This document shows positions 1 to 4,247 of a DNA stretch of 60,379 nt, piece by piece (position 1 is the first letter of the stretch; the number at the start of each line of letters is the position of its first letter). Origin of the DNA: Candidatus Omnitrophota bacterium. Its GTDB lineage: Bacteria; Omnitrophota; Gorgyraeia; JAHJTE01. A program made the translations under genes and the position numbers. The notes under the pieces were generated by a model. It made no database searches. It was not told the DNA's origin and saw only the letters and a list, made by a program, of their open reading frames with translations. Where the stretch lies: contig JBFMEB010000010.1 in NCBI GenBank assembly GCA_040753675.1, positions 1 to 60,379 on the forward strand, read 5' to 3'.

Positions 1-28
1 AAGTGGTAACGGGGTTTTAGGAGGTTAA

Positions 29-51
29 AAGACACAGAATGATTGTGTCTT
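29..51 (+). terminator. hairpin AAGACACA-GAATGAT-TGTGTCTT, a possible terminator of an upstream gene; uses the CACAGA word
   Basis: 8-bp perfect stem read directly. A weak T-run follows after a few nt (agcaattttt). Confidence 0.3.
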
Positions 52-169
52 AGCAATTTTTGCTCTTTGAAAACAGACGAAAAGTCCTGCTAGTAGAAAA
101 TCAGGGGTTCTCCGACGGTATCATGTAAAAGATATAGTTCTAAACTTCGAACAAATAAGAACAATAAAA

Positions 170-859
170 ATGAGAATCAGAGAAAAGAGCAAAAATAGAA
201 TAAATCCTAGGAAAGGGAAATGTCTCCCTGGCAGAGAAATTATAAAACCCAATTTATGGTCGAACGATTTAGTACATATTATAGCTCATTTCATGTTTGA
301 TGGCAGAGTAAGCAACGACTCCTGTATTTATTATAGTAAAGATATATACCAGATTAACCATATGAAACAGCTTTTATGCAAAATGTTTAGAGCTAAGCCA
401 AAAATCCAATTGCGAGACAATAGTGTTTATGGTTTAACTATTTACCATGTTGAACTTGCTGCTTACATCAGGAGAAGGAAAGAAGAGCTATTTGCATATC
501 TTAATAATGGAGCATCTAAGTTAGAAAAGAGAATTTTTTTAAAAGCTTTTTTTGATGATGAAGGTAATGTTTTTTATAGAGGCGATAAACGTAGGGTGCG
601 CGGGTATCAGAAATCACCTATGCTATTGGAACAAGTGCGTAATTTATTAAGTAATTTTGAGATTGGAAGCAAAATAAATAAAGATGGTACTAATATTGAA
701 GTTTCTGGTTATTGCAATTTAATAAAATTTGCTAATGAAATAAATTTTTCTCCCAAGATTTATATTAATCCAAAGAGAAGAAATGGAATCTGGAAAAAAA
801 GAATTTCAAAAAGAAGAATATTAAGCCTTCTCTTGAAGTCGTATCAGAGGAGGGAATAA
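170..859 (+). CDS. LAGLIDADG-family homing endonuclease, two-motif type, free-standing
   Basis: 229-aa ORF with two LAGLIDADG-like helices ending in acidic-Gly (VHIIAHFMFDGRV and IFLKAFFDDEGNV). Each is followed by the usual S/K-x-x-x-L-L-x-x-V/L scaffold segment. The ORF ends 32 nt upstream of the intron-containing tRNA. Confidence 0.7.
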   Translation: MRIREKSKNRINPRKGKCLPGREIIKPNLWSNDLVHIIAHFMFDGRVSNDSCIYYSKDIYQINHMKQLLCKMFRAKPKIQLRDNSVYGLTIYHVELAAYIRRRKEELFAYLNNGASKLEKRIFLKAFFDDEGNVFYRGDKRRVRGYQKSPMLLEQVRNLLSNFEIGSKINKDGTNIEVSGYCNLIKFANEINFSPKIYINPKRRNGIWKKRISKRRILSLLLKSYQRRE

Positions 860-891
860 GTTTATTTTGTTCTTTGGTAAGAATTGATTAT

Positions 892-1231
892 GGGCCACTA
901 GCTCATCTGGTAGAGCACCACCCTCACGAAGGGGGCACTATTGGGCAACCAATAGTAGCAAATCTTGTAAAGTGCGGGGAGGTCTGGGGTATTTCAAGAT
1001 ACTCAATTTGGATAAAAGTAATAATTCTTGAATGCAGATAATCCGCAGCCAAGCTCTTAGTAATAGAATTCTAAGAGAAGGTTCAACGACTATAATCAAG
1101 ACCTCCAATTTTTAAATTTTTGAGTTACAATTTTTTGTTTTGGAGGATGGGATAGTCTGATCTGCATGGCGACATGCAGTTAACACTAATGTTTAAGGTG
1201 GGTGTGCCGCGTTCGAGTCGCGGGTGGCTCA
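892..1231 (+). tRNA. tRNA interrupted in the anticodon loop by a group I intron; the spliced product reads as tRNA-Lys(UUU)
   Basis: 5' half 892-924: acceptor GGGCCAC, D arm GCTC/GAGC, anticodon stem CCACC plus CU. 3' half 1192-1231: UUUAA, GGTGG, variable GTGTG, T arm CCGCG-TTCGAGT-CGCGG, acceptor GTGGCTC, discriminator A. All four stems pair. The joined loop CUUUUAA gives anticodon UUU. No CCA is encoded. Confidence 0.8.
925..1191 (+). ncRNA. group I intron (IC3-like core), no internal ORF
   Basis: P1 CCCU(921-924)/GGGG(931-934) with a U.G pair at the splice site. P2 937-944/949-956 with a GCAA loop. P3 963-967/1097-1101. P4 974-977/1043-1046. P5 982-986/1035-1039. P5a 993-999/1026-1032. 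AGCCAAG junction, then P6 1054-1060/1071-1077, then GAAGGU. P7 1088-1092/1153-1157. P8 1102-1108/1140-1146. P9 1162-1168/1173-1179 with a GCGA loop. Terminal G at 1191. P10 is UUU of the 3' exon with GAA 928-930. Confidence 0.8.
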
Positions 1232-1233
1232 TA

Positions 1234-1258
1234 TAAATATCAAATATCAAATATCAAA
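1234..1258. repeat. tandem heptamer (A)ATATCA x3 immediately 3' of the tRNA
   Basis: aatatcaaatatcaaatatcaaaaa read directly. The same ATATCAAA word recurs in the 16822 and 54174 elements. Confidence 0.7.
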
Positions 1259-1315
1259 AATTTAAAGCCAGCGACGAAGAACGCGCAAAAGGATAAAAAG
1301 TTTATCTACCTTTTT

Positions 1316-1397
1316 GGGCGGATGGCGGAATTGGCAGACGCGTATGGCTTAGGACCATATGGGGAGACCCTTGGAGGTTCAAATCCTCTTCCGCCCA
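1316..1397 (+). tRNA. tRNA-Leu(UAG), long variable arm
   Basis: Acceptor GGGCGGA/TCCGCCC, D arm GCGG/CGCG, anticodon stem TATGG/CCATA with loop CTTAGGA, 13-nt variable arm, T arm GGAGG-TTCAAAT-CCTCT, discriminator A. Confidence 0.9.
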
Positions 1398-1411
1398 TAG
1401 GTTATTGAATA

Positions 1412-1870
1412 ATGAATAAATTTTTTCAAAGCACACTTAGAATATTTCTGTTGCTGTCCATCATTTTTATTTACTCTAAAGCTTTTTGTGCTGACCGGGG
1501 AGAATCTACATTAGGAGAAGCAGAGAGGGATCCACAACAGATGGCTTCTAATCAAGTTATCCAGGTGCATTTTGATGCTAAGGTGATAGAATTAAATCGC
1601 ATGGAAAGGTCGCCTCTCTCTGGAGAAGAAGGTTACATCATGGATGCTGATCCTAAATGGAAACTTGTTCTGGAGGTACTTCCCCATATGCAAAAGATTC
1701 CCTTTCAGCCAGGTATACGCACATGTTATATAGGAGATCCCGAACTTGTCTTTGGTGTTTCGGCTAAACATGTTTCAGGTAAGTATCGTTTTTCATATAC
1801 TTGGAATGTTGATGTTAGCGGCAAACCAGAATTTACTGATTTTAAGGCAACAAAAATCAAAAATTATTGA
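1412..1870 (+). CDS. hypothetical secreted protein
   Basis: 152-aa ORF with a hydrophobic N-terminal signal-like segment (LRIFLLLSIIFIYSKAFCAD). No family recognised. Confidence 0.5.
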   Translation: MNKFFQSTLRIFLLLSIIFIYSKAFCADRGESTLGEAERDPQQMASNQVIQVHFDAKVIELNRMERSPLSGEEGYIMDADPKWKLVLEVLPHMQKIPFQPGIRTCYIGDPELVFGVSAKHVSGKYRFSYTWNVDVSGKPEFTDFKATKIKNY

Positions 1871-1881
1871 GGAATTAGATT

Positions 1882-2385
1882 ATGGATAAAGTTGCTATTA
1901 TGAATGAAGCTCGGGCAAATTATAGATTTGAACGCGAGGCAAAAAATACAGAAGAAGCGAAGTTATCTTTCGAAAAATATAAAAATGATCCACTTTTTGT
2001 TGCTGGCGTGATGCTTTACTGGGCAGAGGGTACACGTTTAGCTAAATATAGAAAATATCAATTGACCATTACAAACTCTGATCCTGAGCTACTGGAAATA
2101 TACTGTAATTTTGTTCGTAGATACTTTACTGATGTGGATTCAGTCTTCAGGGCTGCTTTGTATATCTATAAAGATATTGATGAATCCAAAGCTAAATTTT
2201 TTTGGTCAAGTCGTTTAAAAATTCCCTTAAATCAGTTTATAAAGACTCAAATATTACCAAGCAGGAGTTTATTAACTAAAACCAAGTTGACTTATGGTAC
2301 TTGTTGCGTATACATAAATAGTAAAGATTATTTATTTACAATGCAGGTTTGGATAGAGAGTGTCTCGAATATTATGCGGCGGTAA
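1882..2385 (+). CDS. putative single-motif LAGLIDADG-like endonuclease
   Basis: 167-aa ORF. FVAGVMLYWAEGT followed by LTITNSDPELLEIYCNFVRRYF resembles a LAGLIDADG helix plus scaffold. The last 10 nt, including stop TAA 2383-2385, lie inside tRNA-Gly. Confidence 0.5.
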   Translation: MDKVAIMNEARANYRFEREAKNTEEAKLSFEKYKNDPLFVAGVMLYWAEGTRLAKYRKYQLTITNSDPELLEIYCNFVRRYFTDVDSVFRAALYIYKDIDESKAKFFWSSRLKIPLNQFIKTQILPSRSLLTKTKLTYGTCCVYINSKDYLFTMQVWIESVSNIMRR

Positions 2386-2448
2386 TTCAGCGGCTAGAAT
2401 GCCTGCTTGCCAAGCAGGATGGCGTGGGTTCAAATCCCATCCGCCGCT
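2376..2448 (+). tRNA. tRNA-Gly(GCC)
   Basis: Acceptor GCGGCGG/CCGCCGC, D arm ATTC/GAAT, anticodon stem CCTGC/GCAGG with loop TTGCCAA, T arm GTGGG-TTCAAAT-CCCAT, discriminator T. Confidence 0.9.
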
Positions 2449-2457
2449 CTTTCTAAC

Positions 2458-2515
2458 GCAGATTATCACAGATTAAATGAAACAGATAAACACAGATATC
2501 AGTGATCATCTGTGT
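2458..2515. repeat. CACAGAT-word intergenic element ending in a hairpin
   Basis: gcagatta, cacagatta, acagataa and cacagata run as direct words, followed by the inverted atctgtgt. Stem ACACAGAT 2490-2497 / ATCTGTGT 2508-2515. Confidence 0.7.
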
Positions 2516-2535
2516 AAAAACCGGAGGTTTTTGAA

Positions 2536-3006
2536 ATGAAAGTAATGGAGTTTTTGCCAAAAAAGGCAATCAGCGCTGATTTAAAAGGAACAAATAAACA
2601 GGAGATACTTTCGGAATTATTAGATTTGCTTATTAACTCCGGAGAAATTGAAAAGAAACACAAAAATAAATTTATGGAACTTCTCTTAGCCCGCGAGGCA
2701 TTGGGTTCAACTGCTATTGGCCAGGGTATAGGCATACCACACGGTAAAAGCGATAATATTTCCAAATTGGTGGCTGCCTTTGGCTTATCCAGAAGCGGAG
2801 TTAATTTTGATTCTTTAGACGGAGAGCCGGTTTATCTATTTTTCCTTTTGCTCGCACCGCAGGATTCTGCCGGGCCGCACCTTAAGGCATTAGCAAGGAT
2901 ATCCCGACTTCTAAAAGATAAATATTTCCGTGAGAAATTAAAAGCAGCGCGCGATGAGGCCTCTATATTAAAAATTATTTCTCAGGAAGACGATAGGAAA
3001 ATGTAA
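2536..3006 (+). CDS. ptsN: PTS EIIA-Ntr-type regulatory protein
   Basis: 156 aa with the EIIA(Fru/Ntr) fold signature and active-site His context GQGIGIPHGK. Confidence 0.8.
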   Translation: MKVMEFLPKKAISADLKGTNKQEILSELLDLLINSGEIEKKHKNKFMELLLAREALGSTAIGQGIGIPHGKSDNISKLVAAFGLSRSGVNFDSLDGEPVYLFFLLLAPQDSAGPHLKALARISRLLKDKYFREKLKAARDEASILKIISQEDDRKM

Positions 3007-4247
3007 TGTTAGCGCAGATTAAAAGAATTTTAAAATGGCTTTCTCCTGGAATGCGCATAAAGCGCTGGATACTTATGACCGGTCTTGGCCTATTTTTTGT
3101 CGGTTATGGTTCAGCCAGGCTTATCCGAGATGAATTATTTTTTTTACAAGTAGCTGATTTTATTATTGTCATAGGCGGAATAGGCTTAGTGGTAGCAGGG
3201 ATAAAAAAGATGATGAAGTCTTTTATAACAATACTCTTACCTGCGGGCGATAAGGAGTTAGTGGATATTATTTACCGCAAGCGCCAGTTAGAAAAAGGCC
3301 CATCAATAGTTGTTATTGGTGGTGGGACAGGTTTATCAGTGTTATTACACGGTTTAAAAAGCTTTACCAGTAAAATTACCGCTATTGTCACAGTAGCTGA
3401 TGATGGAGGTTCATCAGGTAGGTTAAGAGAGCAATTCGACGTTTTACCTCCGGGTGATATCCGCAACTGCCTGGTTGCCTTGGCGGATGCAGAGCCATTG
3501 ATGCAGAATTTATTCCAATTCCGTTTTAATGATGAATCAGAATTTAAAGGGCATAATTTTGGAAATATATTTATTACCGCAATGACTAAATTAACCGACG
3601 GAGATTTTGAGAAGGCAATTGAAGAGTCTAGTAAAGTATTAGCAATTCGCGGCAGAGTAGTTCCGGCGACATTAGATAAGGTGGCGTTAGAAGCTAACTT
3701 CGCCGACGGCAGTAAAACAGTAGGCGAAGCTAATATACCCCAAAAAGGAGGCCGGATTAAAACTGTTTCTCTTAGGCCAGCACAAGCCAGGGCGGCTAAC
3801 ACTGCTTTGGAGGCAATCGCTCAGGCAGAATTAATTATCTTAGGCCCAGGAAGCCTTTACACTAGTGTAATCCCAAACTTATTAATAAAGGAAATATCCG
3901 AGTCGATAGTGAATTCCAAGGCTTTTAAAATTTACATTTGCAATGTTATGACCCAGCACGGCGAGACAGACGGTTATAGCGCTTTTGATCATCTGCAGGC
4001 ATTAATCAAGCATACTGACAAGCGGATAGTTGATTGCTGCTTAGTCAATAATGCAAAGATCCCTCAAGAATTTTTGGAAAAATACCGTCAAGAACAATCG
4101 TTTCCCGTTGAGTCTGATAGCCAACGAATACGCGATGCGGGTTTTATAGTGCTTGAGAGTGATTTTGTTAATTTTACGAATTTCGTAAGGCACGATAGTA
4201 AAAAGCTGGCCAAAGCAATAATAAATATAATAGCCAATTATGTTTAG
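3006..4247 (+). CDS. yvcK: YvcK/CofD-like (UPF0052) protein with an N-terminal membrane-anchor extension
   Basis: VVIGGGTGLSVLLHGLK, VADDGGSSGRLR and PGDIRNC are typical of YvcK. About 95 extra N-terminal residues carry two hydrophobic helices. TAATG overlap with the ptsN stop. Confidence 0.75.
   Translation: MLAQIKRILKWLSPGMRIKRWILMTGLGLFFVGYGSARLIRDELFFLQVADFIIVIGGIGLVVAGIKKMMKSFITILLPAGDKELVDIIYRKRQLEKGPSIVVIGGGTGLSVLLHGLKSFTSKITAIVTVADDGGSSGRLREQFDVLPPGDIRNCLVALADAEPLMQNLFQFRFNDESEFKGHNFGNIFITAMTKLTDGDFEKAIEESSKVLAIRGRVVPATLDKVALEANFADGSKTVGEANIPQKGGRIKTVSLRPAQARAANTALEAIAQAELIILGPGSLYTSVIPNLLIKEISESIVNSKAFKIYICNVMTQHGETDGYSAFDHLQALIKHTDKRIVDCCLVNNAKIPQEFLEKYRQEQSFPVESDSQRIRDAGFIVLESDFVNFTNFVRHDSKKLAKAIINIIANYV

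Follow-up and report, generated by a model that had tools for sequence, protein, structure and literature searches.

The DNA analyzed here is a contig assigned to an uncultured Omnitrophota bacterium, and the window, by which we mean the whole analyzed stretch of 60,379 nucleotides (nt), was the sole part of this genome visible to us. Close to its start, positions 892–1231 of the plus strand hold what we read as a tRNA-Lys(UUU) gene whose anticodon loop is split by a group I intron, and directly upstream lies a free-standing gene of the LAGLIDADG homing endonuclease type. Syntenic contigs found through endonuclease homologues have the gene order rpsB-tsf-pyrH-frr-LAGLIDADG gene-(group I intron)-tRNA-Leu(UAG)-tRNA-Gly(GCC)-PTS EIIA-CofD-HPr-PtsI and carry the label Candidatus Omnitrophota. 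The order pyrH-frr-(endonuclease)-tRNA-Lys-tRNA-Leu-tRNA-Gly-EIIA-CofD was seen again in many contigs. Given these labels, Omnitrophota is the most likely source of the window, and an origin in the candidate phyla radiation was rejected. An exact-protein look-up with the MetK of the window returned no record.

The split tRNA-Lys(UUU) gene and its splice junction

When the segments 892–924 and 1192–1231 were joined, they formed a 73-nt cloverleaf called by ARAGORN as tRNA-Lys(ttt). This agrees with the original prediction, made from the window sequence, that the two halves yield a complete tRNA once 925–1191 is removed and that the host is tRNA-Lys(UUU); the spliced product was the same in every relative. 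The 5' exon (892–924, plus strand), as delimited by ARAGORN on the spliced sequence, covers tRNA-Lys nt 1–33 with the acceptor 5' strand, the D arm, the anticodon-stem 5' strand, C32 and U33. The 3' exon (1192–1231, plus strand) covers nt 34–73 with the anticodon UUU, A37, A38, the anticodon-stem 3' strand, the variable loop, the T arm, the acceptor 3' strand and the discriminator A; CCA is not encoded. After splicing, the tRNA shows the canonical traits of tRNA-Lys(UUU), namely the cloverleaf, the 7-nt loop CUUUUAA and the discriminator A73. In the unspliced window ARAGORN sees no tRNA-Lys and reports only tRNA-Leu(UAG) at 1315–1398 and tRNA-Gly(GCC) at 2376–2449, and there is no second tRNA-Lys gene within the 60-kb window.

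The pre-tRNA leader and spacer, read from the sequence, occupy 860–891 (plus strand) and include the motif GTTCTTTG at 869–876. This motif is kept upstream of tRNA-Lys regardless of whether the endonuclease gene is present (17 endonuclease-less loci were compared). Either GTTCTTTG or GTTCTTTAACAATTT stands 15–25 nt before the tRNA-Lys 5' end in L123, L127, L128, L148, L162, L169, L170 and other loci, and in GC-rich relatives a clear TGCTATAAT −10 box precedes the leader motif. No sigma-70 promoter consensus was found on the plus strand.

The intron itself (925–1191, plus strand) is 267 nt long and contains no open reading frame (ORF). The claim that it folds into a group I core was upheld by the covariance model Rfam RF00028 (Intron_gpI), which matches positions 915–1179 of the plus strand over the full model with 83.9 bits (gathering threshold 50; E = 6.7e-20); the match was recovered in a permissive scan of positions 1–3000. 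Related loci have Rfam group I matches of 59–110 bits in the same place.

The position of the splice junction follows from several constraints. U924 is the sole U in CCACCCUCACGAA, and G1191 is the sole G that gives a 7-nt anticodon loop. The exon end CCU lies opposite G in 65/65 homologues, and the intron end UG precedes UUUAAG. Other U/G splice pairs near the Rfam match were enumerated for 12 loci; all gave oversized or aberrant tRNAs, and 33/34 alone produced a tRNA of 73–76 nt with a 7-nt loop. Because the other U/G junctions tried are aberrant and the splice-site pairs are conserved, sequence analysis could hardly place the insertion between U33 and U34, or assign the anticodon UUU, more securely; both had been proposed in the original prediction.

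Architecture of the intron

All group I core helices are intact in the window copy (all features lie on the plus strand). P1 (921–935; 921–925/931–935) consists of exon C921–U924 and intron C925 paired with the guide G931–G935, with the pair U924.G932 marking the 5' splice site. A possible P10 pairs A929-A930-G931 with U1192–U1194 of the 3' exon. The P2 hairpin (938–955; 938–944/949–955) carries a GNRA loop, GCAA, at 945–948. The P3 5' strand (963–967) pairs with its 3' strand at 1097–1101. P4 (973–978/1042–1047, within 973–1047) and P5 (983–986/1035–1038) are nearly invariant among relatives, and the region enclosed by P5 (983–1038) accommodates an extension formed by P5a (993–999/1026–1032) and P5b (1000–1003/1017–1020). 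P6 pairs the invariant GCC 1048–1050 with GGU 1080–1082; it is continued by P6a (1054–1060/1071–1077, within 1048–1082) and flanked by AGCCAAG 1047–1053 and GAAGGU 1077–1082. The presumed guanosine-binding helix, P7, forms a pseudoknot with P3 and consists of a 5' strand (GACUAU, 1088–1093) within the invariant 19-mer AGGTTCAACGACTATAATC and a 3' strand (AUAGUC, 1152–1157); its six pairs are invariant in 65/65 sequences. The P8 hairpin (1102–1146; 1102–1108/1140–1146) has a variable, AU-rich distal part. The P9 hairpin (1163–1178; 1163–1168/1173–1178) is capped by the GNRA loop GCGA at 1169–1172, and the terminal G (omega-G) at 1191 defines the 3' splice site; every copy, whether one of the 68 from metagenomes or from a genome, has UG directly before UUUAAG. 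The details named in the original prediction thus all reappear at their positions: the U.G pair at the 5' splice site (U.G in 65/65 sequences), the GNRA loops on P2 and P9, the two motifs around P6 and the intron-terminal G, which is invariant among copies.

An unconstrained minimum-energy fold of 892–1231 recovers the acceptor, D and T arms together with P1, P2, P4–P6, P7, P8 and P9, and its stability exceeds that of dinucleotide shuffles (z = −4.7). Features typical of subgroup IC3 were observed: a compact intron with GNRA-capped P2 and P9, no P2.1, P5abc or P7.1/7.2, and GCCAAG and GAAGGU around P6. The core 19-mer also occurs in short introns of phage-like protein-coding genes. The IC3 label, drawn from architecture and core motifs, is a weaker, putative assignment.

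Relatives of the split gene and covariation

Relatives were collected in two ways. A scan with an endonuclease profile, covering one genome per species, gave 80 loci, and searching metagenomes for the invariant core 19-mer AGGTTCAACGACTATAATC yielded 113 matches, 68 of which are tRNA-Lys(UUU) genes split at 33/34 (61 distinct introns of 223–412 nt). Metagenome and genome loci together comprise 71 distinct pre-tRNA sequences. Covariation was assessed on alignment A3, which holds 65 distinct pre-tRNAs and 67 pairs of P1–P9.

Intron pairs were formed in 97.2% of cells across the 65 pre-tRNAs, and compensatory changes occurred at 40 of the 67 pairs. None of 500 shuffles reached the observed pairing values, and sliding the 3' partners by 1–3 columns lowered pairing to 37–46%. 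Variation was found at every pair of P2, P5a, P6a and P8, with compensatory changes at 7/7 pairs in each of these helices (99.1% paired in P2 and 96.1% in P8), and compensation extends to P3 (4/5 pairs; 100% paired) and P9 (5/6 pairs; 99.7% paired). P4, P5, P6 and P7 are essentially invariant, as is the J6/7-P7 core, which is expected of P4–P7 because they form the catalytic core. Pairing in the intron-spanning cloverleaf reaches 99.8%, and its acceptor, anticodon and T stems contain compensatory changes; in the anticodon stem, whose strands lie on either side of the intron, four of five pairs are compensatory.

Exon nt 30 covaries with two partners. Against the guide sequence it forms C-G 35 times and G-C 30 times, and against exon nt 40 it does so in the same proportions (C-G in 35 and G-C in 30 sequences). 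This three-way covariation provides direct evidence, by comparison, that the exon switches between pairing in P1 and pairing in the anticodon stem. The pair formed by the first intron nucleotide (+1) is C-G in 31 and U-A in 26 sequences. P1 measures 4–6 base pairs (bp) across the 71 distinct sequences, and P10 is short, mostly 2–4 bp between AAG 5' of the guide and UUU of the 3' exon. The comparative pattern shows that purifying selection acts on both the exons and the intron.

No other tRNA host of the intron core was found among the 113 metagenome matches; those outside tRNA genes are either introns within phage-like genes that code for proteins or lie on truncated contigs. The introns in phage-like genes are group I introns of 179–308 nt with the exact core 19-mer (L100:2770–2948, L161:1071–1249, L126:6183–6378, L122:4319–4521, L108:5096–5279, L142:243–534, L159:3017–3296 and L137:11892–12199). 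Annotated phages contained no close relatives of the intron, only core matches of 28–65 nt; annotated phage records matched by other parts of the intron core show host genes of this type, such as an anaerobic NTP reductase and a DNA polymerase. One further core-motif match (L104; contig NFZD01005658.1, 149 kb) lies in a contig region that also holds a tmRNA gene as well as nine or more tRNA genes, and this region has no Rfam group I match at the gathering threshold.

A probable working gene split by a group I intron

From these data we conclude, with a probability of roughly 0.88, that 892–1231 is a working tRNA-Lys(UUU) gene split at U33/U34 by a 267-nt ORF-less group I intron. Its catalysis, guanosine-dependent self-splicing by two transesterifications, is what we infer from the conserved core. 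The precursor would be transcribed, probably jointly with the downstream tRNA-Leu(UAG), and the intron would fold into its P3–P9 core. In P1, the last four exon nucleotides, CCCU, would pair with the guide GGGG, so placing U924 in the U.G wobble, and an external guanosine held in P7 would attack directly after U924. The UUU of the 3' exon would pair in P10 with the AAG that immediately precedes the guide on its 5' side. U33 would then use its free 3'-OH to attack after G1191, and ligation of the exons would give a tRNA with the loop CUUUUAA. The predicted ligated junction is CACCACCCU followed directly by UUUAAGGUGG, and CCCUUUUAAGG would span it.

Some observations weigh against this conclusion. 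Splicing in the organism is, here, a prediction from sequence. With 60 kb of the genome visible, a second, intact tRNA-Lys(UUU) gene elsewhere is possible, and the metagenome copies were retrieved by an intron motif, so that intron-less alleles of the lineage lay outside the reach of the scan by design. P1 of the window copy is at the short end of the observed range (CCCU/GGGG plus the extension pair C925-G931), and A920/C936 and C919/A937 are mismatched in the window where relatives have G-C and C-G.

In Omnitrophota and related bins, the intron of the pyrH-frr-tRNA-Lys locus appears to be old, with inheritance that was mostly vertical.

The neighboring LAGLIDADG endonuclease gene

The free-standing ORF upstream of the split tRNA gene (170–859, plus strand) encodes 229 amino acids and matches Pfam PF14528 (E = 8.4e-11). 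It contains both LAGLIDADG motifs with their acidic residues kept (..FMFDG.. and ..FFDDEG..), and D98 and D183-D184-E185-G186 are invariant in alignment A1. The AlphaFold model of the homologue P0025 (pLDDT 89.9) is closest to I-DmoI and the endonuclease domains of inteins (Foldseek best matches with E = 1e-7 to 1e-9 and a TM-score of ~0.67 on the target), and bI3 maturase and I-AniI are also among the Foldseek matches. With two motifs and a modeled monomeric two-domain fold, the family has the predicted makeup of a LAGLIDADG homing endonuclease. No matches were found among PDB sequences, in NCBIfam or in PHROGs. We also considered that the ORF might be part of an upstream intron or rRNA and rejected this, as positions 1–900 have no RNA family match even at E ≤ 1.

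Among the 156 endonuclease homologues found, relatives are ~281 amino acids long compared with the 229 of the window copy. The region 1–169 (plus strand) appears as an eroded N-terminal part of the gene, with a frameshift and a ~45-nt deletion relative to L001. A tblastn alignment of P0002 with the window starts only at nt 122 (frame 2); a remnant 'GFSDGI' lies in frame 3 at ~105–122, with stop codons upstream. The lost part corresponds to the helix-turn-helix-like N-terminus of the relatives, and the window copy is probably decaying. As the contig begins inside this N-terminal region, any tRNA remnant further upstream would be out of sight.

The neighborhood of the endonuclease was surveyed at 91 loci with at least 200 aligned residues, and at 87 or 88 of them the gene adjoins a tRNA-Lys(UUU) gene, at a distance of no more than ~60 nt. 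In 61 loci, all of Patescibacteria, an intact tRNA-Lys(UUU) gene on the same strand ends 0–85 nt before the endonuclease ATG; the two abut (0 nt) in 37 of these and stand no more than 13 nt apart in 54. L033 is one more intact locus from Patescibacteria; ARAGORN mislabeled its tRNA as 'tRNA-Stop(tta)', which we traced to a register slip of the Lys(UUU) loop. Where the tRNA 3' end abuts the ATG (Patescibacteria loci L020–L088, e.g. L034:2412–2490 and L012:2927–3005), the tRNA end GGGCGGAC is directly followed by the start codon. A gap of 0–13 nt leaves no space for a promoter or ribosome-binding site, and the endonuclease mRNA of Patescibacteria may arise leaderless, from processing of the tRNA 3' end.

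At 21 of the 91 loci the endonuclease gene lies 4–55 nt upstream of a split tRNA-Lys gene and at 2 loci (4 in the metagenome set) 9–16 nt downstream of one. The simple rule that a downstream endonuclease goes with an intact and an upstream one with a split tRNA fails, since in L110, L156 and L157 the gene is downstream of a split tRNA. Of the 68 split genes from metagenomes, 25 have the endonuclease gene upstream and 4 have it downstream, on the same strand in both cases, and 17 lack it across at least 900 nt on both sides; the other 22 comprise one doubtful case and contigs that are too short. In a neighbor-joining tree, the endonucleases adjoining split genes form one clade apart from the Patescibacteria clades, with clade and host phylum confounded.

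In alleles without the endonuclease gene, the tRNA starts 23–214 nt after the frr stop codon in 17 of 18 measured cases and 391 nt after it in one. This presence/absence pattern at the frr-tRNA-Lys locus identifies the endonuclease gene as an optional insertion at a fixed locus. The LAGLIDADG gene is a separate, optional mobile element that most likely homes to the tRNA-Lys(UUU) gene.

A different, shorter group I intron was observed in the endonuclease-adjacent tRNA of three Patescibacteria (L031:1412–1700, L025:~2190–2460 and L037:2080–2397 on the minus strand; Rfam 55–59 bits). Its product is ambiguous, either Lys(UUU) with the junction at 34/35 or Asn(GUU) with the junction at 33/34, because two adjacent G residues stand at the intron 3' end; the U.G pair of P1 favors 33/34, and the discriminator is U.

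Truncated tRNA-Lys remnants

Nine loci, representing eight distinct fragments, have an intron-less tRNA-Lys fragment that starts at nt 1 and lies just upstream of the endonuclease gene. The fragments end at nt ~26 (L001), ~30 (L002), ~32 (L015), ~35 (L185 and L201, which share one fragment), ~36 (L006 and L017) and ~42 (L099 and L203), and all nine thus break off inside the anticodon arm. They were located at L099:21–71, L203:1–45 (reverse strand), L006:~2840–2920, L015:~1820–1870, L017:~2430–2470, L002:~3940–4000 (the same contig as L111) and L001:~3915–3945. The remnant of L099 reads GGGCCUCUAGCUCAUCUGGUAGAGCACCACCCUUUUAAGGUG, with an ATG 9 nt later, and keeps CCCUUUUAAGGUG unbroken.

Downstream of the endonuclease ORF, the remnant loci carry a complete intron-bearing gene, with which the remnants share lineage-specific acceptor-stem variants. 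Such an arrangement would be expected had an intron-less gene been cleaved close to the anticodon arm and then mended from a donor that contained the endonuclease gene plus the split tRNA gene. It would fit equally well with an intron-less copy that cannot coexist with the enzyme.

Variation of the surrounding locus

The distance between tRNA-Leu(UAG) and tRNA-Gly(GCC) is ~980 nt in the window (1399–2375) and 7–525 nt in relatives. It contains two ORFs, 1412–1870 (152 amino acids) and 1882–2385 (167 amino acids), of which the second overlaps the start of tRNA-Gly; neither has a match in Pfam, NCBIfam or PHROGs. In a clade with the acceptor-stem sequence GCCCCGC (L008:4430–6795, on the same contig as L017), the split tRNA-Lys is followed by genes for Archease, RtcB RNA ligase and seryl-tRNA synthetase, with no tRNA-Leu or tRNA-Gly directly after it. 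An ACAGC anticodon stem and a downstream tRNA-Ser cluster characterize a GC-rich subfamily. Two bins with a split tRNA-Lys are labeled Planctomycetia and Planctomycetales rather than Omnitrophota (L016 and L026), and the GC-rich subfamily may represent another lineage of the PVC group, unless these two bins are mislabeled.

Explanations for the association of intron and endonuclease

How the intron and its neighbor relate to each other can be explained in different ways. The LAGLIDADG gene may be an independent selfish or domesticated gene that finds a safe site for landing and expression beside a conserved and highly expressed tRNA gene and has no functional link to the intron, a reading whose chances we rate as considerable, if somewhat short of even. 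The largest group of loci, 61–62 from Patescibacteria, indeed lacks the intron and has the ATG abutting the tRNA 3' end, which suggests read-through and tRNA processing, and intron copies without the endonuclease gene are common. Left unexplained by such independence are the truncation in the anticodon arm of all intron-less tRNA-Lys copies next to intron-clade endonucleases and the restriction of this clade to split genes.

These same two patterns would be accommodated by collaborative homing in trans, which we propose tentatively. According to this model, tRNA-Lys(UUU) genes without the intron are cleaved by the free-standing LAGLIDADG enzyme in or near the anticodon arm, the intron at 33/34 immunizes its host gene, and double-strand-break repair co-converts naive alleles to carry the intron together with the endonuclease gene. 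This concerns mobility, and it adds to the reading of 892–1231 as a working split gene rather than replacing it. The model draws on the adjacency of the endonuclease to tRNA-Lys(UUU) at 87 or 88 of 91 loci, on the pairing of an ORF-less intron with an adjacent free-standing endonuclease (21 loci upstream, 2–4 directly downstream), on the single neighbor-joining clade beside split genes and on the presence or absence of the gene at one frr-tRNA-Lys locus, on either side of the tRNA. It would also account for the nine truncated intron-less remnants ending at nt ~26–42, including the uninterrupted CCCUUUUAAGGUG in L099, and for the invariant catalytic acidic residues, and phages provide a precedent (review PMC3984707). 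The coincidence of the enzyme target with the intron site is nevertheless circumstantial, being read from the remnant ends, the longest of which extends to nt 42, ~9 nt past the intron site. Further points against the model are the 17 intron loci without an endonuclease gene within at least 900 nt on each side, the confounding of clade with host phylum and the loss of the N-terminal domain from the window copy. The family members of Patescibacteria, moreover, adjoin intact intron-less tRNA-Lys genes, so they must cut elsewhere or meet resistant tRNA variants.

A broader version of this model is more speculative, and we consider it rather unlikely in its entirety. It envisages a chromosomal collaborative-homing system in uncultured bacteria, built on an endonuclease family specialized on tRNA-Lys(UUU) in at least two phyla. 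The Omnitrophota intron after the universal U33 would be a co-mobilized immunity determinant against cutting of the anticodon arm, and in Patescibacteria the gene would be fused end-to-start to an intact tRNA-Lys gene and its mRNA, set free when the tRNA 3' end is processed, would probably be leaderless.

It is improbable that the intron depends on a protein helper, either a LAGLIDADG maturase or a host factor, instead of splicing autonomously in vivo. LAGLIDADG maturases do exist, such a gene adjoins the intron, bI3 maturase and I-AniI are among its fold matches, and P1 of the window copy is short; yet many loci carry this conserved intron where no endonuclease gene is close by, a pure maturase would not need the catalytic residues that are conserved here, and the core is complete and compact like that of self-splicing Azoarcus-type introns (PMC13168695). 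That the locus is a decaying relic, i.e. a tRNA pseudogene with a dead intron or a gene with another junction or anticodon, is very improbable even though a single 60-kb genome window was seen and the neighboring endonuclease gene is eroding, given that the window helices are all intact, that exons and intron show compensatory changes across 65 sequences and that no alternative U/G pair gives a 7-nt loop, other in silico junctions yielding aberrant tRNAs.

Implications and comparison with known systems

A working tRNA-Lys(UUU) gene split by a group I intron that lacks an ORF has consequences beyond this locus. Standard tRNA finders miss the split gene, so that genomes seem to be without tRNA-Lys(UUU), which affects completeness estimates and decoding inferences. 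The universal U33 is an insertion position that, in principle, every tRNA offers. For specialists in ribozymes and mobile elements, the dozens of natural variants are a possible ready-made covariation set for a compact ribozyme. The LAGLIDADG neighbor, which did not figure in the original prediction, alters the picture of how the element may move, and its tight and widespread association with tRNA-Lys(UUU), including presence/absence polymorphism and truncated intron-less remnants, is a natural system in which to see how ORF-less introns and free-standing endonucleases meet.

Bacterial tRNA group I introns have been described in tRNA-Leu(UAA), tRNA-fMet, tRNA-Ile(CAU), as well as in tRNA-Arg(CCU). 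The intron of tRNA-Leu(UAA) has its junction at 34/35 and splits U34 from A35, inside the anticodon. Like that intron, the one found here lies in the anticodon loop after the U of a U.G pair, is ORF-less and appears ancient and mostly vertical in its inheritance; the host tRNA and the lineage are different, and the tRNA-Leu(UAA) intron has no associated endonuclease. The list of tRNA hosts is partly echoed in PMC5733544. A full-text search of the literature revealed neither a bacterial tRNA-Lys with a genuine group I intron nor any such intron linked to Omnitrophota; this search did not cover a 2025 preprint on tRNA introns of Patescibacteria (Nakagawa et al., bioRxiv 10.1101/2025.07.03.662931). 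A 'group I intron' claimed in 2017 for cyanobacterial tRNA-Lys(CUU) was rejected as a precedent, as its inserts, of only 22–49 nt, are too short for a group I ribozyme. Citing a personal communication, a 2021 paper remarks that group I introns have often entered the tRNAs of candidate-phyla bacteria. Within the limits set by such possible prior art, the split gene adds a new host tRNA, insertion site and phylum to those of an element type already known.

A close parallel is the Azoarcus tRNA-Ile intron, which is likewise compact, ORF-less and located in the anticodon loop of a bacterial tRNA. Both introns have GNRA loops capping P2 and P9, lack P5abc and P7.1/7.2 insertions, share the core GCCAAG ... 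GAAGGU ... GACUA and have a P1 that overlaps the anticodon-stem 5' strand. The Azoarcus intron has a 40-nt 3' exon (PMC13168695), which places its junction at 36/37, and it is 205 nt long in a tRNA-Ile host, whereas the present intron is 267 nt long, interrupts tRNA-Lys(UUU) at 33/34 after the universal U33, has a long P5a/P5b extension and belongs to the phylum Omnitrophota.

The endonuclease shares the predicted monomeric two-domain fold with I-DmoI and the intein LAGLIDADG endonucleases, but it has only 14–22% identity to them, possesses an extra ~60-residue helical domain at its N-terminus and is encoded outside any intron or intein. Phage T4 SegB is a GIY-YIG enzyme. It offers a parallel as a free-standing homing endonuclease gene amid tRNA genes that, as cited in PMC3073962, promotes the inheritance of its region, in that case with no intron involved. 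The Synechocystis tRNA-fMet intron encodes I-SspI (Bonocora and Shub 2001, as cited in PMC3984707 and PMC3073962), which the table in PMC3073962 gives as a PD-(D/E)XK enzyme encoded within the intron in P1; here, a LAGLIDADG gene lies outside the tRNA gene. In phage collaborative homing, an ORF-less intron interrupts the target site of a free-standing endonuclease (review PMC3984707). The known cases are in protein-coding genes of phages, whereas the candidate described here would join an ORF-less intron in a chromosomal tRNA gene of uncultured bacteria with an enzyme of the LAGLIDADG type.

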